DNA of 64,000 bases, taken from the NCBI GenBank assembly GCA_036265355.1, contig DATAPF010000683.1, forward strand, positions 35,457 to 99,456. The letters are read 5' to 3'. This document shows, piece after piece, positions 5,098-31,307 of this stretch. The translations under genes were made by a program, and so were the position numbers. This DNA comes from Kofleriaceae bacterium (GTDB lineage: Bacteria; Myxococcota_A; Polyangia; Haliangiales; Haliangiaceae). The notes beneath the pieces were generated by a model, which did no database searches, was not told the DNA's origin, and worked only from the letters and a program-made list of their open reading frames with translations. Numbering within the stretch: the stretch's first letter is position 1; each line of letters opens with the position of its first letter.

Positions 5098-5871
5098 ATG
5101 ACCGAGCGCGCGCAGATCCGCACCCGGCTCGACGGGGTCAACGTTCCTTGGGCCGAGCGGCTCGCGACCGCAGTGCTCGGCGGGGTCGCGCTCGCACTCG
5201 GGGCGCGCTGGCTGCGAGCGAGTGCGCAGCGCCGGCCCGCCGGTGGCATGGCGCTGATCGCCGTGGGTGCGATCGCGCTCGGGCGCGCGATCGCTGGTCG
5301 CCCGGTGTACCCCAGCCGCGCACGGCGGCGCGGTGGCGCGCATGCAAGGCGCAGAGCCACCGGCGCGGTCGAGCCGCTGGCGTTCCGCGAGCGGGTCGAG
5401 GTCCGGCTGCGGGTCAACGGCCGCGATCACCAGCTCGCCGCCGACGCGCGGACCACGCTGCTCGATCTGGTGCGCGAGCAGCTGCAGCTGACCGGGACCA
5501 AGAAGGGCTGCAACTTCGGCGAGTGCGGCGCCTGCACGGTCCACCTCGACGGCCGCCGGGTCAACGCGTGCATGGTGCTCGCCGCGGCGGCCGACGGGCG
5601 CGAGGTCACGACGATCGAAGGGCTCGCACTGGGCGGGCGGTTGCACCCGGTGCAGCAAGCGTTCATCGATCATGACGGCCTGCAGTGCGGGTTCTGCACG
5701 CCCGGTCAGATCATGTCGGCGGTCGCGCTGCTCGCGGAGGGCCACGCCGGCTCGGATGAGGAGATCCGCGAGTGGATGAGCGGCAACCTGTGCCGGTGCG
5801 CCGCCTATCCGCAGATCACCGCGGCGGTGCGCGAGGTCGCGGCGGGGCGTCCGGCCGGGAGCAAGGTCTGA
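5098..5871 (+). CDS. Molybdenum hydroxylase (xanthine dehydrogenase/aldehyde oxidoreductase family) [2Fe-2S] small subunit with an N-terminal membrane-hairpin extension
   Basis: The C-terminal half carries both 2Fe-2S motifs (CNFGECGACTV, then CGFCTPGQIM ... CRCAAY). ATG 5098 (MTERAQ...) is chosen over the listed 4876 start, whose upstream part is Arg/Pro-rich junk. The start remains uncertain. The stop overlaps the next start (TGATG at 5869-5873). Confidence 0.85.
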   Translation: MTERAQIRTRLDGVNVPWAERLATAVLGGVALALGARWLRASAQRRPAGGMALIAVGAIALGRAIAGRPVYPSRARRRGGAHARRRATGAVEPLAFRERVEVRLRVNGRDHQLAADARTTLLDLVREQLQLTGTKKGCNFGECGACTVHLDGRRVNACMVLAAAADGREVTTIEGLALGGRLHPVQQAFIDHDGLQCGFCTPGQIMSAVALLAEGHAGSDEEIREWMSGNLCRCAAYPQITAAVREVAAGRPAGSKV

Positions 5872-9043: not shown

Positions 9044-9064
9044 TCCGAGGAGGGCCATCGGCCC

Positions 9065-10738: not shown

Positions 10739-10744
10739 GCGCGT

Positions 10745-10787
10745 GGATCGCGCGCGCCGCGGTCACCGCGCCGCCGTCGCGCGATCC
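10745..10787 (+). terminator. GC-rich hairpin 7 nt after the treS-like stop (possible factor-independent terminator without a U tract)
   Basis: Perfect 10-bp arms GGATCGCGCG (10745-10754) and CGCGCGATCC (10778-10787). An inner palindrome GCGGTcACCGC sits in the loop. Confidence 0.35.
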
Positions 10788-10834
10788 GGCAAGTCAATCT
10801 TAACGGTGGCGGACGAGTCAGTGCGCCGCGCGAT

Positions 10835-11929
10835 TTGCACAGTGCGGACATCGTGCGTGCACCGAGTCTGCTCGTGATGCTCGTGATCGGGAGTCGACTC
10901 GCCGCCGCGAATCCCGACGCGCCGTCGACCGCGCCCGCCGGCGCGCCGCCCGTCGCCGCACAGCCGAGCGCGCCCGACCCCGGCGAGCCGTCCGGCGCGC
11001 CGGCCGAAGCCCACCCGATCGCGGCGCAGCTCCTGCTCGGCGCCGGGTACACGACGTTCGGGCTGTGGGCGTACGGCGCGTGGTACGCAAAGCACAAGGG
11101 GCTCGGCTACTACAAGTGGGGCGGCGATGATCGCAACTGCCGCTATCCAGGCGGCCCCGGCTTCTTCTCGCTGTGCGAGCTCACCGCGTGGGCCGGCTCC
11201 AACACGTACGCCGGTGGTGCCGACAAGTTCGGCCACGCGTGGTCGACCATGGCGCTGGCGCGCGGCGGCACCGAGTTGCTGTCGCGCTACGGCGGGTTCG
11301 ATCACCTGAAGTCGAGCCTGATCTCCGCCGCGCTGGCCGACACGCTGTTCTTCTTCGTCGAGGTCAAGGACGGCTACTTCTACGAGTTCTCGTACAGCGA
11401 TCTCGGCGCCGACACGCTCGGCGCGATCATCGCGGTGCTGCTCGACAACTTCCCGCGGCTCGACGAGATGCTCGACTATCGCGTCCAGTACTTCCCGAGC
11501 CGGGGCTACCTCGACAACATCAGCGGCGGCAACGGCTACAGCCGGCTCAACATCGCGGAGGACTACAGCGGTGAGACCTACCTGATCGCGTTTCACCTGG
11601 GCTCGATCCACGCGCTGCGCGATGCGCGCCACGGCGCGTGGTCGCGGTTCGTCGATCTCGCGATCGGCTTCGATTCGCGCGGCTACAAGCCGAGCCCGCC
11701 GATGGGCTACCCGCCGTACGAGCACCACCAGGACCTGTTCCTCGGGATCTCGTTCAACGCCCAGGGCCTGTTCGACTGGCTCCTCGAGGACCGCGCGTCC
11801 AGGGCGGCGCGGACCACGCGCTACATCACCCACGGTGTGTTCGAGCTGTTCAACCTGCCGTACACGGCGCTACCCGTGATCGATCACCGCAACGTGCCGA
11901 ACGGTCCTGTGATGATGGGCGGCGCGTGA
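10835..11929 (+). CDS. Secreted/periplasmic protein, DUF2279-like
   Basis: Balanced composition, rich in Y/F/W/K. The central GGADKFGHAWS motif recalls the DKxxH signature of the DUF2279 lipoprotein family. The listed start is TTG 10835. An in-frame GTG at 10853 (VRAPSLLVMLVIGSRLAAA, signal-like) is equally plausible. Confidence 0.7.
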   Translation: MHSADIVRAPSLLVMLVIGSRLAAANPDAPSTAPAGAPPVAAQPSAPDPGEPSGAPAEAHPIAAQLLLGAGYTTFGLWAYGAWYAKHKGLGYYKWGGDDRNCRYPGGPGFFSLCELTAWAGSNTYAGGADKFGHAWSTMALARGGTELLSRYGGFDHLKSSLISAALADTLFFFVEVKDGYFYEFSYSDLGADTLGAIIAVLLDNFPRLDEMLDYRVQYFPSRGYLDNISGGNGYSRLNIAEDYSGETYLIAFHLGSIHALRDARHGAWSRFVDLAIGFDSRGYKPSPPMGYPPYEHHQDLFLGISFNAQGLFDWLLEDRASRAARTTRYITHGVFELFNLPYTALPVIDHRNVPNGPVMMGGA

Positions 11930-16756: not shown

Positions 16757-19261
16757 TCAGGGCTCATCGTCGGCATCGCTGGCGCCGTAGCCGTCCGGCG
16801 CGCCGATCGGCGGGCCGTCGGGCGGCTCGGCGGGCGGCGCCTCGAGCCGGTGCGGCTCGCGGTCGAGCTCGGCGATCTGCCGCACGGCGTAGGCGAGGTG
16901 GGCGCGCTCGGCGACGTCTGCGGTGCGCGCGGCGGCGGCCGCCGCCCAGCTGCGCAAGGCCTCCAGCTCGGCGCTGGCGATCGCGCGGCTCTGCGCCGAG
17001 GCCGCCGGGCTCTGCGACAGCGCGATCAGGTCGTTCAGCACGACCTGATCGACCACGCGGCCGATCTCGCCGCGCAGGCCGGCCTCGCGCCGGGCCTTCC
17101 AGCTCGCGGCGAGGATCGCGTCGAGCACCTCGGTGAGACCGGGGCTGTCCGGCGTGCGGGCGTGCTGCTCGATCAGCCGCGCGGCGCGCTCGGGGGTGAA
17201 CAGGAACTGCAGCGTGTGCTGGGCGGCGGCCTCGGCGGGGGCGAGCGCATCGAACACCGGCGAGGTCCGGATCTTGAAGTGCTCGCGTCCGCGCGGATAC
17301 TCCGGCGGGCGCGGCGGGATCAGCGACGCGAGCGGCTCGGGCAGCGCGAGCGCGGCGGGCGACAGCGCGGCGAGCACGGCGGTGAGCGCGCGGCGCTGCT
17401 CGGCGGGGGCGACCGGACGGGTCGCGAGCTGGCCGTCGCCGCGCAGCGCGAACGTGTAGTCGACGCCGCCGAGCAGCTTGGCCGCGGCCTCGACCTGGTA
17501 GCGATGCAGCATGTAGAGCGGGACCAGCGCGTCCTCCAGGGTGGCCAGCGGCGCGCGGTCGCGGATGCTGGCCTCGCCGAACCGCGCCAGCGCCGCGGCG
17601 CGGAGCTGCATGATCCGGCCGAGCTCGTCGACCGGGTTGCCGCCGGCGTCCCACAGGTGCGCGACGCTGCTCGCCGAGCCGGCCGGCCGCGCGTCCTGAT
17701 CGGTCAGGAACCGCTGGCCGGCGGTGAACGCAGCGAGCAGCACCTGCTCTCCGGCGGCGCGATCGTCGGTGCCGGGCGGGACCTGCTGGTAGCCCCAGGT
17801 GATCGCGACCTTGTCCCACGCGCCGATCCCGGTCGCGTAGGCCGCCGACGGATCGAGCGCGCCGTCGGGGCGCAGCGCGACCACCGGCGGCGGGTAGTCC
17901 ATCACCGAGGCGCGGCCGACCGTGCTCGCCGCGTAGTTGTGCATCAGGCCGAGCGTGTGGCCGACCTCGTGCGCGGCGAGCTGGCGCAGCCGGGCCAGCA
18001 CGAGCTGCTGCGCCGCCGGCGACGGCCCGGCCGCCGCGCCCTTGCCGTACGGCGCGAGCAGCGCCTCGGCGATCAGGTAGTCCTGGCGCGCGCGCAGCGA
18101 GCCGAGCGAGACGTGGCCCTTGAGGATCTCGCCGGTCCGCGGGTCGATCACCGTCGAGCCGTACGACCAGCCCCGGGTCGCGCGGTGGATCCACTGGATC
18201 ACGTTGTAGCGCAGGTCCATCGGGTCGGCGCCCTCGGGCAACAGCTCGACGCGGAACGCGTTGCGGTAGCCCGCGGCCTCGAACGCGGCGTTCCACCACC
18301 GCGCGCCCTCGAGCAGCGCGCCGCGGACCGGCTCGGGCACGCCGCGATCGAGGTAGTACACGATCGGCCGGACCGGATCGCTGATCGCCGCCGTCGGGTC
18401 CTTCTTCTCCAGCCGGTGGCGGGCGGCCCAGCGCTGCACGATCGGCTCGCTGAACGGCGTCGCGTAATCCTGATACGAGATGCCGAAGAAGCTCGATCGC
18501 GGGTCGTAGGCGCGCGGCCGGAACCCGGGCGGGGGCAGCTCGACGAACGAGTGGTGCTCGCGCACGGTGATCGCGCCGGGCGTCGGGGTGACCTGGCGGA
18601 CCCACGCGCCCGGGTCGTCGCCGGCGAACGTCAGCGTGGCCTCGACCTCGGTGTTGCGCGGGAAGCTCCTGGTGTGGTCGAGCACCAGCGCGCAGCGCGA
18701 GGCGTCGACGTGAAACGCGCCCTGGCCGGTGTGCTTGAGCGTCGCCGGGATGTCGTGGGCGTCGCGCAGGAAGAACTCGGTCGCGTCGACCAGCGCCCGG
18801 CCGCCGGTCTCGGCCGCGACGCTGAACCCCCACAGCGCCGACTCGGCGAACGACTCGCGGACCGCGCGCTCCTCGTCGGGCAGCGCGCCGACCGCGCGGT
18901 ATGCCAGGTTCGATTGCACCAGCAGCACCCGGGGGCCGATCCGCTCGAACCGGACCACCCGGGTCGCGCCGAGCTGGCCGCGATCGAGCCCGATGTCGTT
19001 CGAGCCGATCCCGGCGGGCAGCGCGCTCTGGTAGAGGAACTCCTGCTGCCACTGCCCGATCTCCAGCCACAGCTTGCCGGCGCGCTCGTCCCAGTACAGG
19101 TTGAACAGCCCCGGCATCGCCCGTGCGCCGGCCACCTTGTCGGCGATCGCCGGCATCGCCGGCGCGGCTGCGCCCGGCGGCTTCGGGGCGGTGCGCGGCG
19201 CAGCAGCGGCGGCACAGGCGGCGGTGAGCGCGAGCCAGACGGGGACCGAGCGCGAGAGCAT
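16757..19261 (-). CDS. Secreted zinc-dependent metalloprotease (large, DUF5117/DUF4953-type family)
   Basis: 834 aa with signal peptide MLSRSVPVWLALTAACAAAAA. Zincin motif HEVGHTLGLMHN is followed by SVMDYPPP. The family assignment is from memory of similarly sized zinc-dependent metalloprotease proteins. Confidence 0.85.
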   Translation of the reverse strand: MLSRSVPVWLALTAACAAAAAPRTAPKPPGAAAPAMPAIADKVAGARAMPGLFNLYWDERAGKLWLEIGQWQQEFLYQSALPAGIGSNDIGLDRGQLGATRVVRFERIGPRVLLVQSNLAYRAVGALPDEERAVRESFAESALWGFSVAAETGGRALVDATEFFLRDAHDIPATLKHTGQGAFHVDASRCALVLDHTRSFPRNTEVEATLTFAGDDPGAWVRQVTPTPGAITVREHHSFVELPPPGFRPRAYDPRSSFFGISYQDYATPFSEPIVQRWAARHRLEKKDPTAAISDPVRPIVYYLDRGVPEPVRGALLEGARWWNAAFEAAGYRNAFRVELLPEGADPMDLRYNVIQWIHRATRGWSYGSTVIDPRTGEILKGHVSLGSLRARQDYLIAEALLAPYGKGAAAGPSPAAQQLVLARLRQLAAHEVGHTLGLMHNYAASTVGRASVMDYPPPVVALRPDGALDPSAAYATGIGAWDKVAITWGYQQVPPGTDDRAAGEQVLLAAFTAGQRFLTDQDARPAGSASSVAHLWDAGGNPVDELGRIMQLRAAALARFGEASIRDRAPLATLEDALVPLYMLHRYQVEAAAKLLGGVDYTFALRGDGQLATRPVAPAEQRRALTAVLAALSPAALALPEPLASLIPPRPPEYPRGREHFKIRTSPVFDALAPAEAAAQHTLQFLFTPERAARLIEQHARTPDSPGLTEVLDAILAASWKARREAGLRGEIGRVVDQVVLNDLIALSQSPAASAQSRAIASAELEALRSWAAAAAARTADVAERAHLAYAVRQIAELDREPHRLEAPPAEPPDGPPIGAPDGYGASDADDEP

Positions 19262-19342
19262 GGATACCTCCGCCGCATGCGTATCACCATCGCGCGGCGC
19301 GAGGGGTACGGGGTGTCAGAGCCGGCCGGTAGGGTAGCGCCC

Positions 19343-20317
19343 ATGCAGCTGGTCGAGATCGGACGCAACGAGCCCTGCCCGTGCGGCAGCGGCCGCAAGT
19401 ACAAGAAGTGCTGCCTCGCGGCGCGCGACGCCGCGGTCGCCGCGGAGCCGGAGATGGTGGCTGCCGTCGACCAGGCGATCGAGGACGACGACTGGGAGGC
19501 GCTGCACGACCGCATGGATGCAGGGATGGCCGTGTTCCAGCGCGGCGCGCCCCTGGAGCACGTCCGGTTCCCGCAGGATCAGATCCGCTCGCGCAACCCC
19601 GATCGCGCGGAGATGGCGAAGATGTGCAGCGCCGGCTGGCTCCGCCGCGCCGAGCTGGAGATCGCGCACGTGCTCGACCGCTTCCGGCTCGACGCCGCGC
19701 AGCGCGACGGCCTGCGCCTGGCGGCCTACCTGCTGCGCCGGTTCGGCGCGGTGTCGCCCACGGTCGAGGAGGTCGCCCAGCTCCAGGTCGCCGAGCACAT
19801 GCAGCGCGTGCGGCGGTTCGCCGAGGCGGTGTCCTCCCGCGGGCTCACCATGGAGGAGGTGATGGCCGACATGGACGGCCTGCTCGGCTGGATCGAGCGC
19901 GTCCGGCCCACGGTGCTGTCGTTCGCCGAGTGGTTCGCGCTGCGGATCGCCACCGACGAGCAGATCCACGGGAGATGGCTGTCCGGCATCTCCATGCGGG
20001 TGTGCGAGGCCTGCCTCGACCAGCTCGAGGATCCATCCGGCGAGGATCCGCGCATCTGGCTGCTGCTCGCGGCGTCCACGTTGTTCGTCGATCGCTCGCC
20101 GCTCGGCCGCGTGCTCGCGGAGCTGACCTCGCCGCGCCAGCTGACCGAGTCCGAGCGGATGCTCCATGCAGGGCTCGCCGGCACACAGCCGACCCAGGAG
20201 CTTCGGGGCTTCGTGCCCCGGAGCGTCCGCGAGACGGAAGGCCGCGGGGACTTCGCCGACGCCGCGCTGTTGCGCGCGCTGATCCAGGACGTTCAGAGCT
20301 CGCACGGGTCCAGATGA
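19343..20317 (+). CDS. SEC-C motif domain protein, otherwise uncharacterised and helical
   Basis: ATG 19343 gives MQLVEIGRNEPCPCGSGRKYKKCC (SEC-C metal-binding motif) at the N-terminus. The upstream part of listed ORF 16850..20317 is antisense to the protease and is rejected. An alternative ATG at 19277 lies only 15 nt from the divergent gene. Confidence 0.75.
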   Translation: MQLVEIGRNEPCPCGSGRKYKKCCLAARDAAVAAEPEMVAAVDQAIEDDDWEALHDRMDAGMAVFQRGAPLEHVRFPQDQIRSRNPDRAEMAKMCSAGWLRRAELEIAHVLDRFRLDAAQRDGLRLAAYLLRRFGAVSPTVEEVAQLQVAEHMQRVRRFAEAVSSRGLTMEEVMADMDGLLGWIERVRPTVLSFAEWFALRIATDEQIHGRWLSGISMRVCEACLDQLEDPSGEDPRIWLLLAASTLFVDRSPLGRVLAELTSPRQLTESERMLHAGLAGTQPTQELRGFVPRSVRETEGRGDFADAALLRALIQDVQSSHGSR

Positions 20318-20413
20318 TCGCGATGCGGAACGCACGATGCGCTCGTCGACCCTATATTATTAATGCTTGGGCAAGAGAAGCCAATCGACGATCGACTCTA
20401 TTAGGGTAACACC

Positions 20414-23400
20414 TCACGATATCGGCTCACCACATTCCGGGCGAACGAAGCAGGCTTGCCATCCTCTTTCCAATCCGAACGATCCATCTCCTTGCTGAAT
20501 TGAGAAAAGGTGTTTACATTCATCCCTTTTCATTCCGGGGCAGACTGCTTCGCAAGCTTTGCGCGCACCATCGATGGCCTCCTTTCGGTCCATCGCGTCA
20601 AAGCAGATCGTTGATCTAACCCTGTTGGGACCAGGCCGTGGCCCTGGTGGAGCTGGCACACACGAAGCAGCTGTGTGCTCCGCCGTGCTCCCCACCGTAG
20701 GACCGCCGAACGGGCCGGCCCCAGACTGATAACTGGAGGGTTGAGGGTCGAACATGGGCATGATGACCGGCGCAATCGAAGCTCGGTCCAGCGCGGATGT
20801 GATGCGGAGGAAGGCATGGTTGGGGCGGAAAGGCACCTGGCTGGGTGCGGTTCCGGTGATGTCGAACCAGTTGATGGGGTCGGCAAAGCTGTATGTATAG
20901 AGATTTGACCCACCCGCAAAGCGGCCAGGGTCCTTGCTCGTCCACCGCCCGGTTGCACCATCGTATTCCCTCGCGCCGAAGTGTACGAGTCCGGTGTCCT
21001 TGTCGTACAGGCCACCCGCGAAGCCGAACGGCTGGAAGCCCGGGCTCGAGTCCGTCAGAACCTTGCCCCATGGATCGTAGGTGATCGACTGCATCACGGT
21101 TCCGTCCGAGGTACGGACGACACTTCGGACGCTGCCGAGGTGATCGGTGATGATCGCGTACGTCGCCCCGCCGCGGATGAAGTAGGCGGGCGTGTGCGAC
21201 AGCGGGCCGTAGACGTACCGCGTCGTCACCGTGCCGGATGCGTTTACCTCGGCCGCGACTTGCCGGGAGTTGCGGTACACGAATCGGTTCGTGATCGATC
21301 CGTTGAGCAGTCGAGTGATCCTTCGCCCCAAGGCGTCAAGGCCATACGTTACCGTGCCTCGACCGGCCGGAAGCGCGGCGCTGAGGAGCTGGCCGCGACC
21401 GTCGTAGGTGTACGTCGTGACGCTGGTCCCGGACGTGACAGTGGAAAGCTCACCATTGGCCGTGTACGTGTACGTCGCACCGAAGCCGGCCGTCATCCGG
21501 TCCTGCGCGTCGATGACCGCGCCGCCGTCGGTGCGGTTGCCGTTCGCGTCGTACGTGTACGTTGCGTCGACGACCCCGTTCTTGGTGGTGCCGATCAGGC
21601 GGCTATTCGCGTCGTAGGAGTAGCCGAACGTCGTCGACTTTTCCTTCTTGGTCTCGACGCGCGCCAACGAATCGAAGGTGTACGTCGGCGCGTACACCGT
21701 CGTGCCCGGGGCCGTCACGGTGAGCTTTTTCATCGCGCCGAACGCATCGTAGCTGTACGACCACTGGATGCCATCGACCGACGCATCCGTGGCTTGGCCA
21801 GTCGAGTCGCGCGTGATCGATAGCGCGCCGACGTCGGTGATCAGACCGTCGAGATCGCGGAGCACATGGATGGTCGTGCCGGTGCCGACCCGCTCGCTGG
21901 CGACCCGGAGCTTGGCGTCGTACGTCCACCGCACCACACCCGGTGCGGCACCGGTCGCGGTGACCACCGTCAGCAGGAAGCCATCGTAGCTGTACGCTAG
22001 CGAGTTGCCCGACGGACCGGTGAGGCTCGCCAAGCGGCCTGCGGCGTCGTACGCCGCGCCGATGGTGCTCACGCCGAAGGTCAGCGTTGCCACCCGCCCC
22101 ACAGCGTCACGGCTCACCGCGATCGTCGAGCCATCTGCGCGTGTCTCGCTCGCGAACGCCTGGTCGCCATCGTACGACGTGAGCGTGGCGGGACTACCCG
22201 GTGGCATGTACGACGTCTCGTTGTCGTCGCCGTTGTAGGCCAAGCCGTGTGCCGGCTTTCCCGGTGGCGCAACGCTGGTCGCGTTGTCAGCTGGGTCGTA
22301 TCCAATCGCCAGTGTCCCTCCGTCGGGATGAACCACCGACGTCACACGACCGACGGCGTCGCGCAGCGTCCGCACGGCGTTGCCCTGCGCGTCATGGATC
22401 TCCGCCAGGAACCCGCTGGTCGCGTCGTAGACGGCATCGATGTGGCGCGTGCCCTGCGCGATCGAGGCGACGCGGCCGTGCGCATCGTAGCTGACGGTCA
22501 CCGGCGTGATGCCTGGGACGGTCAGCTGGGTCGTGCGGCCGTGCGCGTCGACGACCGACGACAACACGCGACCGCTCGGGGTGGTCCACGTCGTGGTCCG
22601 CGTCGCCGCATCCCACAGCCGGTCCCACGTGCCGTCGGCATCATCGGTCGACGTGTCGAGCTGGGTCAGCGAGGTCAGCGCACCGCTGCCGTCCGCGAAC
22701 GTCGCGGTCGAGGTCGTGCTCGCCGACGCGATCAGACCGCTCGGCAGCGTGATCGTCTGCTCACCGACGAGCGGCGCGAGCATGCCCCACTGCGGGTCGG
22801 GGTCCTCTCGCACGACGCTGACCGTTCCGTCGGGATAGGTCGTGGTGCTCGTGCCATCGCTGCCGCGCGTCCACGAGAGCTTCGTTCCGTCTTCGTAGGT
22901 CAGCGCGCGCTGCTCGGTGCCGTCGAGAAGGACCTGGAGATCGTGACCGCGCGTGCGGCCGAGCGCCGTTGCCACATCGACGTGCACCGGGGTGCTGGAG
23001 GTGCGGGTCAAGGTCCAGCGCGCCCCGGCGGGGCTGGTGTCGGTCGCGAGCCGACCCTGGGCATCGTAGGTCATCACGTGGCTGCCGCCGCGCGGATCGA
23101 CGAGCTGGGTGAGCCGCCCTCCGGCCTGGTACGACAGCGCGGTCACGCGGCCGAGCGGATCGGTCGCGCTCGCGAGGTTGCCGTCGGCGTCGTAGCTCAG
23201 CGTCATGGTCTGCCCGAACGGGGCGTGGATCGCGGTCGCGCGTCCGGCGCCGTCGCGCTCCAGCGTGACCGCGTTGCCATCGGCATCGGTGACGCTGGTC
23301 AGGTAGCCGTCCGCGTCGTAGCCGAAGCTCTGCACAACCGCGAAGGTCGAGCCGTTCAGCGTCTGCAGGTGGCGGCCGGTGCCGTCGAACACGTACACGA

Positions 23401-26194
23401 AGCTGCCGTCCTGCTCGGGAATCACGATCTGCGTGCCCTGCTCGCGCGGCAGCGGCGCGCCCATGCGCAGCACGCGATCGATGCCCTCGCTCGCGACCAG
23501 ATCGTCCGACGGGCTGACCGTCATCCCGCCGATCGCGCTGATCAGCAGCCGGCGCGTCGGCGTCGGGATCGCGTCGTCGTTGCCACCGCCTGCATGGGTC
23601 GAGATCGTCCCGCGCGGGTTGACCTTGCGGATCACCCCGCCCTGCAGCTCTGCGATGTACACGCTGCCGTCGGGCGCCACCGCCACCCGGAACGGTTCGT
23701 TCAGCGCCGCCTGCTTTGCGGAGCCGCCGTCGCCAGTGGTCGCGGCAATGCCGGTACCGGCGAACGTGTGGATCGTGCCGTCGGGGGTGATCCGGCGAAC
23801 CTTGTGGTACTCGCGCTCGGCCACGTACACGCTCCCGTCGGGCCCGACCGCGATGCCGAGCGGCGTGCCCAGGGTCGCCGCGCGGGCGCTGCCGCCTTCG
23901 CCATCCCCGGCCGTGGTCGCCAGGCCCGCGTAGACCCGCGCGCGGCCGTTGTTGCCGACGCGATAGACGAGCGAGACGTCCTGCACGTAGAGGGTGCCGT
24001 CGTCGGCCAGCGCGAGCTCCTCGGGCCGGTCGAGCAGCACGTCGCTGCCCGTCGCGGTTCCGGCATCGAGCAAGGTGCTGCCGCCGCCGAGGACGGTCCG
24101 GATCGTCCCGCCGGGATCGATGCAGCGCACCTTCGCGACCCCGGTGTCCGCGATGCACAGCGTGCCGTCGCCGCCGAGCGCCAGCCCACGCGGCTCGCTG
24201 AGCTGCGCCGCCGCGGCAGGCCCGCCGTCGCCGGCGGACCCCGCGACGCCGGTGCCCGCGATCGTGGTGATGATCCCCGCCGCGTCGATCTTGCGAACCC
24301 GGTGGTTGGCCGAATCGGCGACGAAGATCGCGCCGTCCGGGGCCGCCGCCACGCCGAGCGGCAGGTTCAGCTGCGCGTCGGTCGCCGGTCCGTTGTCGCC
24401 GGAGAACCCGGTGCCGTTGCCGCCCGCCTGCCGCTCGGTCACCGAGAACAGTCCCTGCGCATGGCGGCGGCGTCCGTCGCCGAAGTGCAGGACCTGGCTA
24501 TCCGGATCGTAGACGTGATGGCTCGACAGCGTCCATCCGCCGAGGCCGAGCGTGCTCGCGTGCCAGACCCCGACCGGGGCGTCATAGCGCCGCGCCAGCG
24601 TGATTTCCTGCCGGGTCGGGTCGGTGGTGAGCGTGGTCTGATCCGGGATCTCGCCGAACGCCGGGGTCTGCAGGTAGACGCCGTCGTAGACCAGCCCGAC
24701 GTTCACGCTCGCGAGCGTGGTTCCCGGCCAGGTCCGTCCGAACGCGTCGAGCCCATTCCACGTGAACGTGTGGGTCAGGTGGGGTGTCACGGTCGCATAC
24801 TCCGCGTGGGTTCGCACGCCGAGCACATCGACGTCCACGACCGCGCGCTTGACCCCGGGCGGCACAGTGTCGCCGGTGATCGGGATCGCGATCGAGAACT
24901 CGGCGGTCCGCCCGGGAACGCGGTCGCTCTCGTAATGAAGCGCCATCCCCGTGCCGACCAGGTCGATATCGTCGCCGAGCGTCTGATCCTCGCACGCGAT
25001 CGTCGACGCGCCGGACATCTCGCAGCGCTCGTCGCTGCGATCGCCGTTGCCGTCTGCCTCGACCGGCCCGTCCGCACCATCCGGGGGCGCCTGGCCGTCG
25101 TTGAAGTCGAGGAACGAGAAATGCGCGAGCGGGACGCGCCAGTACGACGTGCCGGCCGAAGCAAAGCCGGCGAGCGCCGCGAGCTCGCCGGGCGTTGCGC
25201 CAGCGAGATTGTCGGCCACGCCGTCGCCATCACCATCGAGCGCGAGCTGGCCATTCGCTCCTGTCACCACCGCGACGACGCGTCCGCTAGGCTCGGCGCT
25301 CCAGGTGTCGCCGGATGCGACGTAGGTCCCAGAGGGGACTGGCACGCCGACCTTCTTGTGCAGGAAATTATCGACGTAGGAGATGACGTTGGCGTCGAAC
25401 CGCACGGTCTTCGCAGCGCTCGCCTCGTCGAAGCCGAGCGCGGTCGCGTAGGTGTACGCCACGGTGGGCGCGATCTCGCCCGGCATCGCCGATGGGCCGA
25501 GCGCGCCGCGCGTGAACTCGGTGACGCGCAAGGTTCCGTGGGGCAGCGCGGACTGGGTGCCGTCCTGTGCAACTGCGGTCGCATGCACGCCGGGCGGAAA
25601 CAGCACGTGCATCGTCCGCGCTCCGTTGCTGTCGCTTACCGTGTCGCCCGCCGCAACTTGCCACGCCGACGCGCCGTTGAGGTCGACGGCGGTCGTCTTC
25701 GCCGAGGCCGGCAGCAGTGCGACATCGGGCAGCACGGCGTACTTGCCCCATCGCGTTCGAGCCGAGCGCTGCGCGGAGAACCGTCCGGCGGCGTCGATCC
25801 GCAGCGTGACGCGCCCTCCGCCTTGGACCACGAAGTCGAAGCTTCCGCTGGCGGGCGTGGTGATCGCGCCCCACTCGGGATGGCCGGGAATGCTGACCTG
25901 CGCGCCGGCGAGCGGTGCACCGCTCTCGTTGGTGACCCGGCCGCGAATCACCGCGGTCCGCGCGCGCGAGAAGGACGACTGCGCAGCGTTGTGCTGCACG
26001 GCCTGCCCGCGCGCACCGCCCTGGAACAGGAACTCCACCGAGTCGTAGAACGAGACCGCGCCGGTGGCATGGATGGGCGGCGGCCGCAGCCCTTCTGGTG
26101 AGCCGTCGCCGTCCACGTGGGACTCGCTGCATCCACTCGAGACCAATGCGGTCGCCATTGCGAGCGACACCGTTACGCCACTCCTGATCTTCAT
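20414..26194 (-). CDS. Lipoprotein Rhs/YD-repeat protein with NHL propeller (teneurin-like module order) and a 145-aa variable C-terminal tip
   Basis: Lipobox is MKIRSGVTVSLAMATALVSSGC. Next is a carboxypeptidase-regulatory-like segment (VIRGRVTNESGAPLAGAQVSI). NHL-type blades occupy residues about 590-915 (AGTGVAGSAGDGGPAAAAQLSEPRGLALGGDGTLCIAD etc.). Dozens of YD repeats follow (YDADGNLASATDPLGRVTALSY...). The Rhs core ends at GLVHFGAREYDGATGRWTSKDPGRFAGGSNLYTYSFADPINWFDITG, followed by a tail. Confidence 0.95.
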   Translation of the reverse strand: MKIRSGVTVSLAMATALVSSGCSESHVDGDGSPEGLRPPPIHATGAVSFYDSVEFLFQGGARGQAVQHNAAQSSFSRARTAVIRGRVTNESGAPLAGAQVSIPGHPEWGAITTPASGSFDFVVQGGGRVTLRIDAAGRFSAQRSARTRWGKYAVLPDVALLPASAKTTAVDLNGASAWQVAAGDTVSDSNGARTMHVLFPPGVHATAVAQDGTQSALPHGTLRVTEFTRGALGPSAMPGEIAPTVAYTYATALGFDEASAAKTVRFDANVISYVDNFLHKKVGVPVPSGTYVASGDTWSAEPSGRVVAVVTGANGQLALDGDGDGVADNLAGATPGELAALAGFASAGTSYWRVPLAHFSFLDFNDGQAPPDGADGPVEADGNGDRSDERCEMSGASTIACEDQTLGDDIDLVGTGMALHYESDRVPGRTAEFSIAIPITGDTVPPGVKRAVVDVDVLGVRTHAEYATVTPHLTHTFTWNGLDAFGRTWPGTTLASVNVGLVYDGVYLQTPAFGEIPDQTTLTTDPTRQEITLARRYDAPVGVWHASTLGLGGWTLSSHHVYDPDSQVLHFGDGRRRHAQGLFSVTERQAGGNGTGFSGDNGPATDAQLNLPLGVAAAPDGAIFVADSANHRVRKIDAAGIITTIAGTGVAGSAGDGGPAAAAQLSEPRGLALGGDGTLCIADTGVAKVRCIDPGGTIRTVLGGGSTLLDAGTATGSDVLLDRPEELALADDGTLYVQDVSLVYRVGNNGRARVYAGLATTAGDGEGGSARAATLGTPLGIAVGPDGSVYVAEREYHKVRRITPDGTIHTFAGTGIAATTGDGGSAKQAALNEPFRVAVAPDGSVYIAELQGGVIRKVNPRGTISTHAGGGNDDAIPTPTRRLLISAIGGMTVSPSDDLVASEGIDRVLRMGAPLPREQGTQIVIPEQDGSFVYVFDGTGRHLQTLNGSTFAVVQSFGYDADGYLTSVTDADGNAVTLERDGAGRATAIHAPFGQTMTLSYDADGNLASATDPLGRVTALSYQAGGRLTQLVDPRGGSHVMTYDAQGRLATDTSPAGARWTLTRTSSTPVHVDVATALGRTRGHDLQVLLDGTEQRALTYEDGTKLSWTRGSDGTSTTTYPDGTVSVVREDPDPQWGMLAPLVGEQTITLPSGLIASASTTSTATFADGSGALTSLTQLDTSTDDADGTWDRLWDAATRTTTWTTPSGRVLSSVVDAHGRTTQLTVPGITPVTVSYDAHGRVASIAQGTRHIDAVYDATSGFLAEIHDAQGNAVRTLRDAVGRVTSVVHPDGGTLAIGYDPADNATSVAPPGKPAHGLAYNGDDNETSYMPPGSPATLTSYDGDQAFASETRADGSTIAVSRDAVGRVATLTFGVSTIGAAYDAAGRLASLTGPSGNSLAYSYDGFLLTVVTATGAAPGVVRWTYDAKLRVASERVGTGTTIHVLRDLDGLITDVGALSITRDSTGQATDASVDGIQWSYSYDAFGAMKKLTVTAPGTTVYAPTYTFDSLARVETKKEKSTTFGYSYDANSRLIGTTKNGVVDATYTYDANGNRTDGGAVIDAQDRMTAGFGATYTYTANGELSTVTSGTSVTTYTYDGRGQLLSAALPAGRGTVTYGLDALGRRITRLLNGSITNRFVYRNSRQVAAEVNASGTVTTRYVYGPLSHTPAYFIRGGATYAIITDHLGSVRSVVRTSDGTVMQSITYDPWGKVLTDSSPGFQPFGFAGGLYDKDTGLVHFGAREYDGATGRWTSKDPGRFAGGSNLYTYSFADPINWFDITGTAPSQVPFRPNHAFLRITSALDRASIAPVIMPMFDPQPSSYQSGAGPFGGPTVGSTAEHTAASCVPAPPGPRPGPNRVRSTICFDAMDRKEAIDGARKACEAVCPGMKRDECKHLFSIQQGDGSFGLERGWQACFVRPECGEPIS

Positions 26195-26435
26195 TCGCGA
26201 AGCCTCCTGCTGGTCCGGCGTTCCGCGACACGGAACGATGTTCCCGGCGTCGCGAGCGGGTTGGTAGACGATGGCAAACCACGGCCGCCGCCATGGCGAG
26301 GCGCTGCCCTCGACGCAGCGCCGCCCGCGAACTCGGCGATGCTTGCCGCACGTCCTGGTGCTACCCAGGGTTCGGGGGTGTCAGGGCCCGAGCTACCCAA
26401 AGCACCCGTTCCACCGTACATGTGGATGGAACACC

Positions 26436-29400
26436 ATGGCCACGCGCAGCGCACTCGACGAGCCACCGACGGTCCGGAGCCTGCATGGACGCGGGCGCGA
26501 GCTCGCCGAGCTCGATGCCGCGCTCGAGCAGGCGTTTGGTGGGCGCGGGGGTGTGTTTCTCCTCTCCGGCGAGGCCGGCATCGGCAAGACGCGCCTGGCC
26601 GAGGAGCTCGCCGCGCGCGCCGAGGCGCGAGGCGTCGGCGTGTTCTGGGGTCGGGCCTGGGAGGTCGCGGGCGCGCCGGCGTGCTGGCCGTGGACGCAGG
26701 TCGCGCTCACGGCCACGCAGACCGAGGCCGGCGCCGACTTCCTGGCCCGCGATCCCAGCGCGGTCGGCCTCGCGTCCATCCTGGCCCCGGCGCGCTCGAG
26801 CGAGCACGCAGACGATCCGGAGCTCGGAACGGCGCGCCTCGCTCTGGCGATGCTCGCGCTCCTCCAGCACCTCGCCGCGGAGGCGCCCGTCGTCCTCGTC
26901 CTCGACGATCTGCACGCCGCCGACGTGGCCACGCTGACGCTCCTCGGGCAGATCGCGCGCGACCTTCGCCGCCTCGCCGTCCTCGTCATCGGAACGTATC
27001 GCGAGGTGGAGGCGCGGCGCTCGCCCCGCATCGCGGCCCTCCTCGTCCGCGTGGCCAGGGATGGGACGGCGCGGTCCCTCGCCCGTCTCGACCATGACGC
27101 CGTTTCCGGCTGGCTCGCGGCGTCGCTCGGCAATCGCGCGTCGGCGGAGCTCGGCGCGGCCATCTTCCAGGCCAGCGAGGGCAACCCGCTGTTCGTCGAT
27201 GCCCTCGTCCAGCTCGTCGCGGCGCGCGGCGACGCGGTCGCGCTGCCGTCCGGCTTCGTCCTGCCCGACACGATCCAGGAGACCGTGCGCGAGCTCCTCG
27301 AGCGCGTCTCGCCGCCGGCGCGCGCCATCCTCGAGGCCACCGCCGTCCTCGGGCGCGAATGCCAGACTGCCATCCTGCTCGTCGTGTCGGGCGCCGCCCA
27401 CGAGGACGTCCTCGCGGCGGTCGCCGAGGGCGTCGCCGCCGGCGTCCTCGCGCCGCAGGTGACGCCGTTGCGACCGGTGCGCTTCGCGCACGTCCTCATC
27501 CGCGAGGTCATCTACCGCGGCACCAACGCAGCGCGACGGATCGAGCTCCACGCCCGTTGCCTCGCTGCCCTGCGGCGCATTCACGGGGTAGACCTCGACG
27601 CGCACCTCGCCGAGCTGGCCCACCACGCCTTCGAGAGCGCCTCCGTCGGCAGCTGGGCCGACGCCGTCGACCTCTCGTTCCGCGCCGGCCTTCGCGCCCT
27701 CGACCTCCTCGCCTTCGACGACGCGGCCCGGCACTTCGAGCGGACGCTCGCCGCCCTCGATCACGGCGAGCGTCGCGACGACGCCCTGCGCGCCGACGTC
27801 CTCTGGCGGCTGGGGCGGTGCCAGATCTTCCTCGGGCAGCCGCCGCTCGGGCGCGAGACCTGCGAGCGCGCTGCCGCGTGCGCCGAGGCGGCCGGCCGCG
27901 CCGACATCTTCGCCCGCGCCGCGCTCGCGTCGTCGCCCGAGGTCTTCCCCGGACGCGCCGATCACCGCCTGGGCGCCCTCCTCGAGCGCGCGCTGGCCAT
28001 GCCGGGCCACGACGCGGTTCTCCAGATCCAGCTCGCGGCGCGGCTGGCCTCGGCGCTCGTGCCCACGCTCGCGCCGGAACGTCCCATGCAGCTCGCGCGT
28101 GAGGCCATTGCCGCGGCGTGCGAAGTCGGCGATCGCAAGCTCCTCGCAGCCGTGCTGGCCACCGTGCGCTTCGTCTTCATGCCGGCGGCAGCGCTCACCG
28201 AGCGTCTGGACTACGAGCGCATGCTGTTCGGCCTGGTCGGGACGCTCGGCGATCCCATCCTCGAGGCGCAGGCGCGCGGCCGGCTCGCCATGTGCGCGAT
28301 CGAATCGGCCGACCCCGACGCCACGGCCCACGAGCTGCGCCTGCAGCGCGACATCGCCGATCGCCTGCGCCTGCCTTGGCACCAGCTGCGCGGCGCCTGC
28401 ATCCGGCTCCTCTGGTCGTCGCTCCGCGGCGACGACGAAGGCGTGGCCGCGGCCGAGCACATCATCCGCGACCACATCGAACGCGTCGACGAGGTGCGGA
28501 GCCTGATCTTCGTCGAGGCCAACCGGAAGGTGCGCGCCGAGGCCCGCGGCGACGAGCGGACCGCCGCCGACGCCCGGACCCACCTCGAGAGTTTGCTCGC
28601 GCTCGACCCGTTCGGCTCCTGGTGTCTGCCGGTCCTCCGCGCCGCGGCCCTGGCACACGGGGGTCGGAAGGACGACGCGCGGACCGTCTTTCTCCAGTTC
28701 GCGCCCGAGGGACCGGCCGCTGCCTTGCGCGCCATGGGGCCGGCGCTCCTCCTCGACGTGGCGCCGTTCGTCCTCGATCTGGGCGACGCCGGCTGGATGC
28801 AGGAGGTCTACGAGGTGCTGCTTCCGTTCGAGGGCCGAAACTCGGTGAACCTCGTCCTCCTCACCAGCGACGGTCCGATCGCGTACCATCTGGGGCTCCT
28901 CGCACGCGCGCTCGGCCGCGCCGACGACGCCGCGCGGCACTTCGCGGCCGCACTGGCGATGTGCGAGCGCGCCGGATTCACCGCCTGCGCAGCGCGGACG
29001 CGGGCGGCTCTCGGTACGCGCCCGCGACTGCCGGACGCAAGCGCGAGCGCGGGGCCGCCCGAGCTCCGCCGGAGAGGCGACGTCTGGATTCTGCGCCACG
29101 GCGGCCGCGAGCTCCTCCTCGCCGACTCCAAGGGCGTCTGCTACCTGGCCGCGTTGCTCGAGGAGCCCGGTCGTGAGCGGCACGTCCTCGAGCTCGTCGG
29201 CGAGGGCGGGGAAGGCGACGCCGGCCCCCACCTCGACGCCGAGACCAAGGCGAGCTATCGGCGCCGGCTCGACGCGCTGCGCGATGCGCTCGAAGACGCC
29301 GAGGAGCGCGGGGACCGCGAGCGCGCGACGCGCCTGGAGGGGGAGCGCGAGGCCATCGCCGCCGAGCTCGCGCGCGCCGTCGGTCTCGGCGGCCGCAATC

Positions 29401-29552
29401 GCCGCGCCGGCGCGGCCTCCGAGCGCGCACGCATCAACGTGCAGCGGCGCCTGCGCGACGTCCTCGACCGCGTCGCCGAGCTCGACGCCGCGCTGGGCCG
29501 GCACCTCGACCTTCACGTGAAGACCGGCGTGTTCTGCTCGTATCGGCCCTAG
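26436..29552 (+). CDS. STAND-class AAA ATPase (AAA_16-like) with a long helical-repeat region and a conserved C-terminal module
   Basis: Start ATG 26436 (MATRSALDEPP...). The sequence HGRGRELAELDAALEQAFGGRGGVFLLSGEAGIGKTRLAEEL contains Walker A. The Walker B region is VVLVLDDLHAAD. About 600 aa of TPR-like helices follow. The C-terminus (GDVWILRHGGRELLLADSKGVCYLAALLEEPGRERHVLEL ... ERARINVQRRLRDVL ... TGVFCSYRP) recalls a module common at the end of actinobacterial and myxobacterial ATPases. Confidence 0.85.
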   Translation: MATRSALDEPPTVRSLHGRGRELAELDAALEQAFGGRGGVFLLSGEAGIGKTRLAEELAARAEARGVGVFWGRAWEVAGAPACWPWTQVALTATQTEAGADFLARDPSAVGLASILAPARSSEHADDPELGTARLALAMLALLQHLAAEAPVVLVLDDLHAADVATLTLLGQIARDLRRLAVLVIGTYREVEARRSPRIAALLVRVARDGTARSLARLDHDAVSGWLAASLGNRASAELGAAIFQASEGNPLFVDALVQLVAARGDAVALPSGFVLPDTIQETVRELLERVSPPARAILEATAVLGRECQTAILLVVSGAAHEDVLAAVAEGVAAGVLAPQVTPLRPVRFAHVLIREVIYRGTNAARRIELHARCLAALRRIHGVDLDAHLAELAHHAFESASVGSWADAVDLSFRAGLRALDLLAFDDAARHFERTLAALDHGERRDDALRADVLWRLGRCQIFLGQPPLGRETCERAAACAEAAGRADIFARAALASSPEVFPGRADHRLGALLERALAMPGHDAVLQIQLAARLASALVPTLAPERPMQLAREAIAAACEVGDRKLLAAVLATVRFVFMPAAALTERLDYERMLFGLVGTLGDPILEAQARGRLAMCAIESADPDATAHELRLQRDIADRLRLPWHQLRGACIRLLWSSLRGDDEGVAAAEHIIRDHIERVDEVRSLIFVEANRKVRAEARGDERTAADARTHLESLLALDPFGSWCLPVLRAAALAHGGRKDDARTVFLQFAPEGPAAALRAMGPALLLDVAPFVLDLGDAGWMQEVYEVLLPFEGRNSVNLVLLTSDGPIAYHLGLLARALGRADDAARHFAAALAMCERAGFTACAARTRAALGTRPRLPDASASAGPPELRRRGDVWILRHGGRELLLADSKGVCYLAALLEEPGRERHVLELVGEGGEGDAGPHLDAETKASYRRRLDALRDALEDAEERGDRERATRLEGEREAIAAELARAVGLGGRNRRAGAASERARINVQRRLRDVLDRVAELDAALGRHLDLHVKTGVFCSYRP

Positions 29553-29620
29553 GATCTGGTGGACGGCGGGTGGGGTGACCTCGAGGTACTAGCCCGTACG
29601 ACCGCGGGCGGAGGCGCCGA

Positions 29621-30286
29621 TCACTTCGGGTCGGTCGCGGGATAGATCTGGCCGCGGACCTCGCCGTAGAAGGTGTTGGCCCTGGTGTGCAGGTTGAAAT
29701 ACAGCACGCCCTTGCGCGCCAGGTACTCGAGCGCCGAGATCGTCATGGATTGCGTGGGAAAGCCGATCTCGACCGGGCAGCTCTCGGGCAGCGCCGGCTT
29801 GAGGCCCTTCGGCATCTGCTTGATGAACGTGATGTTCTTGTTCGACAGCTCGACGGTCATCTTGCCGGCGGCGAGCAGCTTGGGCAGGCTGCCGAGCTCG
29901 CTGAAGTCGACGATGATCGGGCCGAGCACGCCGGGCGGGCCGCAGTGGATGTGGAACATCACGATGTCGGCCGGGTTGACCCCGGTGACCTCGATGTCGA
30001 CGAAGGCGCGGGTGAGATCCTTGGTGAACCGCAGCTGGCCCCAGCCGCGCGACTTGCGCTGCTCGCGCGGCACCGAGGGCTCCGTGGCCTGCAGGCCGGT
30101 GGCCTTGGTGAGCAGCTTGGGCGCGTCGGACTCGTCGCCCGGCTGCTGCTGCGGGCTCATCCAGCCCTCGTAGACGGTGAACGCGGCGGCGCCCTGCGCC
30201 GGATCCTTGGCGAGCGCGGACGGCAAGCACAGCGCACAGGCGGCAGCAGCGAGGAGCAGGGTCCGCAGGGAGATGGTTCTGGGCAT
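29621..30286 (-). CDS. Secreted CHRD-domain-like protein
   Basis: Start ATG 30286 gives signal peptide MPRTISLRTLLLAAAACALCLPSALA. The motif FHIHCGPPGVLGPIIVDF resembles the CHRD H.H.G..G..GP signature. The upstream part of the listed ORF is Arg-rich junk. Confidence 0.65.
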   Translation of the reverse strand: MPRTISLRTLLLAAAACALCLPSALAKDPAQGAAAFTVYEGWMSPQQQPGDESDAPKLLTKATGLQATEPSVPREQRKSRGWGQLRFTKDLTRAFVDIEVTGVNPADIVMFHIHCGPPGVLGPIIVDFSELGSLPKLLAAGKMTVELSNKNITFIKQMPKGLKPALPESCPVEIGFPTQSMTISALEYLARKGVLYFNLHTRANTFYGEVRGQIYPATDPK

Positions 30287-30458
30287 CCGCCGACCACGGT
30301 AACCGAACCCGATCGCGCACCTGCTGCCGCGTATCGCTCCACGCGCTGCGGTCCTGCGGCGCGCTCGTACGCGGTGCCCGGCGAGGTGAGGCCAGGCGGC
30401 GGCACGAGGAACGCCTGGAGGAACGCCGTGGCTCGTCGCGCCGCAGTAAGCTCGCGGG

Positions 30459-31307
30459 ATGCTGACCAGGCTGTTTGCGGCACGGCGCGTACCGGGTGCG
30501 ACCTGGGAGGACCTGTGTGAGGCGACCGGCACCACGGTGGAGCGGGCCGCGGTGGGCGGCGCACGCACCGACCGCGCCGGCCACGCGTTCGCGATCGGCT
30601 ACACGGCGGCGCTCGAGGCGCTCGCCGGCGAGACCCGCGCCGCGTTCTGCGTGACCGAGGACGGCGGCAACCACCCCCGGGCGATCGAGACCCGGCTGGT
30701 CGACGGCCGGGTCACCGGCGCGAAGCGGTGGGCGACGCTCGCCGACCGCGCGGCGCACCTGCTGGTCGTCGCCCGCGAGGGCAGCGATGCCGCGGGCCGG
30801 CCGCGGCTGCGCATGGTCCGGGTGCGCCGCGATGCGCCGGGGGTGACGCTGGAGGTCGCGACCGCGGCGTTCGTGCCCGAGATCGCGCACGCGCGGGTGA
30901 CGCTCGAGGCGGTCGCCGGCGAGGTGCTGCCGGGCGACGGTTATGCGGACTACGTCAAGCCGTTCCGCACGGTGGAGGACATCCACGTCCACGCGGCGCT
31001 GGTCGGGTACTGGCTCGGGGTGGCGCGGCAGCGCGGGTTCGCGCACGCGCTGATCGAGCGGCTGGCGATGACCGCCGCGGCGCTGGTCGCGCTGGGCGCC
31101 GAGGACGCCCGGGCGCCGGCCACCCACGTCGCGCTCGGCGGTGTGCTCGCGGCGAGCGCGGGGCTGGTCGCGGAGCTCGAGGCGGCCTGGGCCGATGTCC
31201 CGGATGAGGAATGCGACCGCTGGCAGCGCGACCGGGCGCTGCTCGGGGTCGCCGGCAAGGCGCGCCGCGAGCGCCTGGCGCGGGCGTGGCAGGCGCTGTC
31301 GGGATGA
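30459..31307 (+). CDS. Short acyl-CoA dehydrogenase-family protein
   Basis: 282 aa. A middle-barrel-like stretch (GGNHPRAIETRLVDGRVTGAKRWATLADRAAHLLVVAR) and a C-terminal helical stretch (GDGYADYVKPFRTVEDIHVHAA) resemble ACAD folds. Assigned by eye only. Confidence 0.55.
   Translation: MLTRLFAARRVPGATWEDLCEATGTTVERAAVGGARTDRAGHAFAIGYTAALEALAGETRAAFCVTEDGGNHPRAIETRLVDGRVTGAKRWATLADRAAHLLVVAREGSDAAGRPRLRMVRVRRDAPGVTLEVATAAFVPEIAHARVTLEAVAGEVLPGDGYADYVKPFRTVEDIHVHAALVGYWLGVARQRGFAHALIERLAMTAAALVALGAEDARAPATHVALGGVLAASAGLVAELEAAWADVPDEECDRWQRDRALLGVAGKARRERLARAWQALSG

Follow-up and report, generated by a model that had tools for sequence, protein, structure and literature searches.

Why a gene with an Rhs core and an apparently exchanged C-terminal tip should stand without an adjoining immunity gene is the question raised by a locus of a Kofleriaceae bacterium (assembly GCA_036265355.1). 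The window, which is the whole stretch of 64,000 nucleotides analyzed here, comes from contig DATAPF010000683.1 (35,457 to 99,456), and the gene lies on its minus strand at 20414-26194. The host genome is of the Myxococcota type (12 Mb, 72% G+C), and its assembly consists of 714 contigs with 94.6% completeness. A first-pass annotation had proposed that the end of this gene is the exchanged tip of a polymorphic toxin and that its expected partner is missing. We found that the gene encodes a bacterial teneurin-like protein (TLP), that its close orthologues carry other tips, and that these orthologues lack a partner gene as well.

The TLP family was characterized by Raoelijaona et al. (Nat Commun 2026; PMC13018210), with BiTLP of Bacillus inaquosorum as an example. 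TLPs occur most often in Myxococcota, with signal peptidase II (SPII) lipoprotein signals in that phylum; they end in a hypervariable C-terminal domain (CTD) of ~15 kDa inside the shell, and the immunity gene comes next in “almost all” of them (PMC13018210). The parts of the present protein are as follows.

20414-26194, minus strand: TLP gene, 1926 aa (open reading frame (ORF) with Pfam TTR_TEN1-4, TEN_NHL and TEN_YD-shell, TIGR03696, and PDB 9pt5/9ifo)
26129-26194, minus strand: putative signal peptide with lipobox, MKIRSGVTVSLAMATALVSSG and then C22 (read by eye from the translation)
25718-25972, minus strand: transthyretin-like (TTR) domain, residues 75-159 (PF25020, E=1.6e-15)
25004-25024, minus strand: plug site C391...G395-A396-S397 (alignment to C719...G723-S724 of BiTLP in 9ifo/9pt5; PMC13018210)
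23585-24427, minus strand: NHL propeller, residues ~590-870 (PF25021, E=1.1e-34, and PF01436)
20930-23398, minus strand: YD-repeat shell, residues 933-1755 (PF25023, E=1e-31, and PF05593)
20852-21079, minus strand: Rhs-associated core, residues 1706-1781, with R1742, D1755 and D1778 (TIGR03696 of NCBIfam, E=1.1e-19; BiTLP alignment)

The order of the teneurin superfold is complete, with the TTR domain upstream, followed by the FN-plug, the NHL propeller and the YD shell. The top matches among PDB sequences were 9pt5 and 9ifo, both “Teneurin-like protein” (phmmer, E=0, 1027 bits), in four stretches that cover residues 29-705 and the shell; animal teneurins ranked below them (E ~1e-82 to 1e-86), followed by Rhs proteins of type VI secretion systems (T6SS). 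The Pfam and NCBIfam domains, together with these best matches, identify the product as a bacterial TLP at the level of its sequence. The catalytic residues R2103/D2116/D2140 of BiTLP match R1742/D1755/D1778 column for column, and C391 and S397 align with the plug residues C719 and S724 with one residue inserted (plug region compared with BiTLP 698-786). In BiTLP, C719 is the tether cysteine and the bond between G723 and S724 is the N-terminal self-cleavage site (PMC13018210). The second core motif of the present protein is DITG in place of DPxG.

The protein begins with MKIRSGVTVSLAMATALVSSGC, and its ATG is preceded at 8 nt by AGGAGG. A lipobox-like LVSSG-C (residues 17-22, read by eye) follows a basic/hydrophobic stretch, and this putative SPII signal agrees with lipoprotein-type anchoring as in the Myxococcota TLPs of PMC13018210. 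The NCBI protein deposited for the gene (P0126) begins within the NHL domain, at an internal Met, and comprises just 1312 aa. The length of 1926 aa is supported by JGI calls and by the start with its Shine-Dalgarno sequence and lipobox, so the deposited annotation appears to be N-terminally truncated. A 91-aa ORF upstream, which overlaps the TLP start by an ATGA, was dismissed as a junk translation, its G+C at third codon positions (GC3, 0.64) being lower than that at second positions (0.76).

The core ends at residue 1781 (...FADPINWFDITG; also shown as ...YSFADPINWFDITG), and the tail comprises residues 1782-1926 (window 20417-20851). The earlier description of a 145-aa tail with seven cysteines (1845, 1864, 1881, 1885, 1893, 1915 and 1921) and no recognizable toxin motif holds in its coordinates, and the tail has no match in Pfam or NCBIfam. 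Structure prediction, which the annotation had proposed, divides it into two parts.

20618-20851, minus strand: tail part 1, residues 1782-1859, a Pro/Gly/Ser-rich linker with the single extra cysteine C1845 (predicted disordered; predicted local distance difference test, pLDDT, 41-47)
20432-20617, minus strand: tail part 2, residues 1860-1921, a six-Cys domain of ~60 aa (predicted beta-alpha-alpha-beta-beta, pLDDT 74)

In the AlphaFold2 model, which was computed from one sequence, residues 1-78 of the tail are disordered and residues 79-140 form a compact beta-alpha-alpha-beta-beta domain; the pLDDT of 74 is the mean of this domain when folded alone. A C-x3-C motif sits in its long predicted helix, and the seventh cysteine lies in the linker. 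Foldseek comparison of the models of the tail and the six-Cys domain with the PDB gave best E-values of 0.9-1.1, i.e., no structural match. Sequence searches with the tail were likewise without result: a word search of 5.8 billion proteins returned solely its own cluster, phmmer against 1.84 billion protein representatives gave 0 matches at E<=0.001, and no PDB sequence matched at E<=10. Neither the tail nor the core motifs were found in those supplementary sequences of PMC13018210 that were accessible. A defensin, Kazal or PLA2-like fold received no support from Foldseek or phmmer. The class of cysteine-stabilised alpha/beta (defensin-like) domains was rejected as well; the helical C-x3-C is present, but the terminal motif is C-x5-C rather than CxC. 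Homology to the Cys-rich tail of G029:C239 (“ECDKEIADAKVFC” vs “DRKEAIDGARKAC”) was also discarded, BLASTP aligning the proline run only. The six-Cys mini-domain is thus apparently a new disulfide-rich domain without detectable relative in the sequences searched.

The proposal of an exchanged tip was borne out by comparison with related loci. A word search with residues 1300-1926 retrieved four metagenome orthologues (P0005-P0008) with cores 70-82% identical to that of the present TLP and with unrelated tails. All four run parallel to it through ...DP(V/I/L)N..D..G plus 1-3 residues, after which the similarity is lost: at residue ~1780, nucleotide identity, taken over windows of 45 nt, goes down from 0.8-0.9 to ~0.5 in each of them. 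Their tails are glycine-zipper-like (P0005, P0006), five-Cys (P0007) or charged (P0008). Alignments to more distant TLPs of related genomes likewise end at residues 1781-1787. The tail is accordingly not conserved among homologous loci, which the annotation had named as the comparison to make. Since orthologous cores carry other tails, similarity breaks at the core end and GC3 falls, the comparisons indicate that the tip has been exchanged by recombination exactly at the end of the core, in a polymorphic-toxin architecture.

The fall in GC3 was seen in the G+C and codon-usage plots, which do show a discontinuity. GC3 is about 0.85-0.9 up to residue ~1739, 0.70-0.75 over residues 1740-1839 and 0.38-0.65 from residue 1840, where the Cys-rich part begins; overall, it drops from about 0.88 to about 0.45 in the tail. 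The annotation had described the last part of the core, the tail and the spacer behind it as less G+C-rich than their surroundings. Taken together, the region 20318-20851 has a G+C of 0.579 against a genome mean of 0.716 (standard deviation 0.042), which places it in the lowest 0.4% of 22,174 equal-sized genome windows, and the spacer has 0.51. The reduced G+C of the late shell and core, on the other hand, comes mostly from codon positions 1 and 2 and thus reflects amino-acid composition.

The depth of the drop differed between tail types. The deepest GC3 drops relative to the core occurred in Cys-rich tails (the present TLP at window 20417-20632, P0007 and G029:C239; L037, L023), with 0.45-0.61 vs 0.91-0.92, and Gly-rich or enzyme-like tails showed little drop. 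This hints that disulfide-rich tips may stem from a separate source pool of lower G+C.

A polymorphic toxin system in the sense of Zhang and Aravind (PMC3482391) combines a constant delivery and core region with alternative C-terminal domains at a fixed boundary, and has a cognate immunity gene and/or tip-immunity cassettes nearby. The present TLP has the alternative tips at a fixed boundary; a cognate immunity gene was not found next to it. There is no tip-immunity cassette in the window, and in the genome neither the tail a second time nor an orphan cassette was found, and just one other Rhs core. That other protein is encoded on the minus strand of contig G000:C240 at about 3790-11200 (2468 codons from stop to stop, with a tail of ~250 aa), and a co-oriented ORF for a lipoprotein-like protein of 335 aa starts 10 nt after its stop, which is the canonical arrangement that the TLP gene lacks.

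The surroundings of the TLP gene are made up as follows.

20318-20413, no strand: spacer of 96 bp without a gene (reading frames, independent assemblies)
19343-20317, plus strand: SEC-C-motif protein, 324 aa, a backbone gene convergent on the TLP gene (Pfam SEC-C, E=2.7e-10; orthologues in relatives without TLP)
20322-29617, no strand: segment of 9.3 kb with the TLP gene and the AAA_16/TPR gene (missing from the two closest relatives, G023 and G042)
26436-29552, plus strand: AAA_16/TPR STAND-type NTPase, 1038 aa, divergent from the TLP gene (AAA_16, E=3e-25; start at M56; called with 1038 aa in L040/L041)
29589-31127, minus strand: backbone gene that adjoins the SEC-C gene in relatives (locus alignment)

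No immunity ORF stands beside the TLP gene. The annotation had stated that no co-oriented immunity gene follows and that the spacer offers no usable start codon. The former was confirmed: the independent metagenome assemblies L040 and L041, which are of the same organism, have the same layout of AAA_16 gene, TLP gene, 96 bp and SEC-C gene, with no gene called in the gap. The latter needs correction, because minus-strand starts do exist; a GTG at 20335 opens an ORF of 339 aa (19316-20335), and the remaining spacer frames close at once. We rejected this antisense ORF as an immunity gene, as it mirrors the SEC-C gene codon for codon; its G+C by codon position is 0.93/0.49/0.73, compared with 0.74/0.48/0.94 for the SEC-C gene. 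The spacer contains no terminator-like site and no unusually stable fold (z=0.1).

The gene beyond the spacer encodes a convergent SEC-C protein, as had been annotated, and this protein had been named as a possible partner. Its history speaks against such a role. Its orthologues in the same-genus genomes G023 and G042 are 76-77% identical, and the loci of both genomes align to the window at 89-91% nucleotide identity. In G023, the alignment covers window 16781-20321 and resumes after 10 bp at window 29618; in G042, the backbone can be aligned up to window 20310, beyond which no homology appears before ~30246. Relative to these genomes, the alignments place 20322-29617 as an insertion flanked by the stop codons of two convergent backbone genes. 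It contains no genes other than those of the TLP and the AAA_16 protein, and the TLP locus is firmly recognized as a recent insertion. As G023 and G042 carry the SEC-C gene next to the other flank gene without any TLP, the SEC-C protein is a conserved element older than the 9.3-kb insertion and is not the partner of the TLP. Past the TLP stop, the insertion runs on for just 92 bp, which is too little for an immunity gene. No terminal direct or inverted repeats of at least 8 bp were found at the insertion ends.

Some further observations concern the flanks. Orthologous TLPs at other loci have no AAA_16 neighbor. A contig with a 97.4% nucleotide-identical variant (L039) shares the first 44 bp behind the stop of the TLP gene; in this contig (1941-2355), a G+C-rich palindromic insert of 43 bp occurs after the stop, and the 44 shared bases are followed by an IstB-like fragment (IS21 helper ATPase) on the opposite strand.

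Is the missing partner peculiar to this insertion? The four close orthologues each lie in a different neighborhood, with the following genes downstream.

P0006 (L035): convergent hybrid histidine kinase of 1351 aa, 6 bp after the stop
P0007 (L037): convergent rhomboid, 58 bp after the stop
P0008 (L038): convergent gene fragment, 10 bp after the stop, with only 100 bp of sequence there
P0005 (L036): co-oriented DUF3160 gene of 703 aa, 157 bp after the stop

None has a small co-oriented gene downstream. The small downstream immunity gene of the same operon, a trait of the TLP family, is therefore absent here and in the close orthologues, and by this comparison its absence is a trait of the close sub-clade and not peculiar to one locus. 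No conserved upstream partner gene was found across the orthologous loci. Upstream of P0006, we observed a lipoprotein-like ORF of 84 aa (L035:7590-7844) that is very rich in cysteine at its end (...CLSHCQTGDLDCVDCCRCLAHGGSAPACCE); it is not conserved at other loci.

A small downstream gene is present in two of three TLPs of the sister clade (51-53% identical): P0009 and P0010 are followed by co-oriented genes of 164 and 133 aa at +3 and -4 nt, and P0012, which has a nine-Cys tail, has a convergent neighbor. Behind more distant TLPs from related genera lie small ORFs that are plausible and whose GC3 is low, similar to that of the tails. When genome and metagenome contigs were scanned for further members of the close sub-clade, the peptide patterns proved too general and retrieved just distant Rhs/TLP loci of at most 45% identity. 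These distant loci were used solely as a crude baseline, in which 36 of 47 assorted Rhs/TLP loci had a same-strand ORF of at least 60 aa whose start lay between -25 and +120 nt relative to the stop.

The seven cysteines of the tail fit a pattern that extends across the homologues. The structure of BiTLP contains a disulfide between cargo and plug, C719-C2216 (PMC13018210); in the portion of that text available to us, this link is not generalized. Among 92 homologue tails of at least 40 aa (proteins P0005-P0123, median tail 137 aa), 86 had an odd number of cysteines and none had zero. The odd counts were distributed as follows.

1 Cys: 46 tails
3 Cys: 22 tails
5 Cys: 8 tails
7 Cys: 8 tails
9 Cys: 2 tails

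Clustering gave 72 unrelated tail families, and 67 of the 71 families of uniform parity were odd (binomial p=9e-16); a looser set of 47 loci had 38 odd and 9 even. The counts suggest that the cargo-to-plug disulfide of BiTLP may be a general TLP rule in which one cysteine of each cargo is reserved for the tether. The present tail, with 7 = 6 + 1 cysteines, obeys the odd rule, which supports its status as a genuine enclosed cargo. The pattern is also relevant to the way in which TLPs retain and release their cargo.

The tail is the polymorphic cargo CTD of the TLP, and on balance we lean towards the hypothesis that this cargo is dependent on disulfides, active outside the cytoplasm and harmless to its producer. 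The protein would be exported by the Sec pathway with its SPII signal and would fold in the envelope. As the catalytic and plug residues are conserved, self-cleavage after about T1782 would be expected, and the YD shell would enclose a cargo of ~15 kDa, with the odd seventh cysteine probably serving as its tether to the plug by analogy with C719-C2216 of BiTLP. The active part would be the domain of ~60 residues, with its six cysteines in three disulfides, and it would fold solely outside the cytoplasm. An immunity protein would then most likely not be needed, either because the cargo never meets a sensitive compartment of the producer or because its target is missing there. Possible targets would be the envelope or surface of prey or other organisms, and the sub-clade would use such proteins for predation, inter-species attack or binding and not for kin discrimination.

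Several points weigh against this hypothesis. DITG replaces DPxG as the second catalytic motif, and self-cleavage is a prediction. The predicted fold of the tail rests on a single sequence. With two plug cysteines (C391 and C401) and seven in the tail, the disulfide bookkeeping is unsettled. The sample of the sub-clade is small, comprising four tail types, one of them with just 100 bp downstream. In a rough survey of other Rhs loci, six of seven Cys-rich tails did have a downstream ORF; a rule that Cys-rich tips lack immunity is thus unsupported, and disulfide richness alone does not explain the missing gene. Finally, the tail evolves fast. Between the TLP and the variant in L039, the shell has 22 synonymous and 10 non-synonymous substitutions (ratio of non-synonymous to synonymous rates, dN/dS, 0.16) and the tail has 3 and 12 (dN/dS 1.29; Fisher p=0.004 for the contrast), which fits diversifying selection but equally the relaxed constraint of a decaying tip.

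A first alternative is that the tail is a conventional antibacterial toxin whose immunity factor is encoded elsewhere in the genome, or whose producer is protected by something other than a protein, e.g., envelope modification. Three of nine TLP CTDs assayed were toxic to E. coli, with cognate immunity shown for one (PMC13018210), and in an assembly of 714 contigs with 94.6% completeness an unlinked gene could escape detection. We nevertheless regard this as unlikely, as in polymorphic toxins the immunity gene moves along with its tip and the exchanged segment here ends 44-96 bp past the stop. Moreover, four different tips of the sub-clade at four loci are all without a partner, and the genome has neither a second tail nor an orphan cassette.

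Quite unlikely, in our judgment, is that the tip is vestigial, the scaffold serving adhesion or cell-cell contact as in animal teneurins while the tail drifts neutrally and needs no immunity. The substitution contrast between tail and shell would fit such drift, as would a GC3 unadapted to the genome and the orphan nature of the sequence, and a role in signalling or adhesion was left open in the TLP paper (PMC13018210). Yet four independent assemblies show an intact reading frame, and the L039 variant retains all seven cysteines, its sole indel being in frame. Conservation of the catalytic R/D/D and of the plug sites, agreement with the odd-Cys rule and a compact fold predicted from the single sequence also speak against a vestigial tip. 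The 15 substitutions in the tail are too few to separate drift from positive selection.

It is very unlikely that the producer is protected because the cargo is never released. In this reading, autoproteolysis would have been lost with the DITG variant, and the shell would keep the tip covalently locked inside it until an external trigger arrives. The motifs of the sub-clade (DLTG, DLEG and DITG) do deviate from DPxG(L), but R1742, D1755 and D1778 align to the catalytic residues of BiTLP, sister-clade proteins with the DITG-like variants DLTG or DQTG still keep immunity genes, and the shell gave E. coli no protection in a published chimera test (PMC13018210). An assembly artefact, in which the low-G+C tail would be a chimeric join in a metagenome-assembled contig, might be suspected from the 714-contig assembly and the abrupt change in G+C, and it is effectively refuted by two other metagenome assemblies that contain this gene with its tail and flanks (1925/1926 aa identical) and by a third that contains the L039 variant with the same tail.

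TLPs were presented in 2026 as effector/immunity pairs, and a tip-swapping sub-clade without immunity genes shows that this pairing is not obligatory. Its members are tractable cases for studying the role of TLPs when self-intoxication is no issue, and the six-Cys tip is a candidate for a new activity. Extending the hypothesis of a cargo harmless to its producer, we put forward, tentatively and with considerable doubt, that a Myxococcota sub-clade of TLPs has dropped the toxin-immunity pairing, and that its exchanged tips, including the six-Cys mini-domain, act outside the producer cytoplasm on prey bacteria, fungi or protists as weapons of predation and inter-species attack or as ligands. If true, such TLPs would stand as a living intermediate between the Rhs toxins of bacteria and animal teneurins, in which the scaffold has a non-toxic, ligand-like use.

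Among known systems, BiTLP is the closest, with the same order of TTR, TIP/FN-plug, NHL, YD-shell and Rhs-core, the catalytic R/D/D, the plug Cys and Ser, a polymorphic CTD of ~15 kDa and, as in Myxococcota TLPs, a putative SPII-type signal. Unlike the TLPs of PMC13018210, the present one has DITG for DPxG and no downstream immunity gene, and its CTD falls outside the folds listed there (protease, nuclease, ART, HINT and OMP-like).

The T6SS Rhs effectors (RhsA, RhsP, Tse5 and Tre23; 7q97, 8h8a, 8cp6 and 7pq5; E 1e-11 to 1e-37) share with it the YD shell, the core with aspartyl autoproteolysis and the encapsulated polymorphic tip. The N-termini of these effectors are linked to PAAR or VgrG, the proteins stay in the cytoplasm until firing, and their genes have an immunity gene next to them, whereas the TLP has putative Sec export and a lipid anchor, TTR and NHL modules, and neither T6SS nor immunity genes alongside.

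A precedent for Rhs cargo without immunity is found in the insecticidal Tc (ABC) toxins, in which TcC (TcB-TcC) forms a self-cleaving Rhs-type cocoon around an unfolded hypervariable cargo. The TcC cargo is not known to have an immunity gene and needs none, since its target is missing in the producer. Tc toxins require the TcA injector, and their cargo is an enzyme for the eukaryotic cytosol. Similarity to the TLP is weak (E ~1e-4; 4igl, 6h6e), no TcA or TcB genes occur here, and a six-Cys disulfide domain would, unlike Tc cargo, not suit a cytosolic target.

The metazoan teneurins (6fb3, 7bam and 8r50; E ~1e-82 to 1e-86) have the same superfold and were the source of the earlier idea that the tip could be an adhesin or ligand. 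They have no cleavage motif, and their C-terminus leaves the shell to make up the domains ABD and Tox-GHH; the TLP, in contrast, retains the catalytic residues, and its tail of ~15 kDa is short enough to be enclosed.

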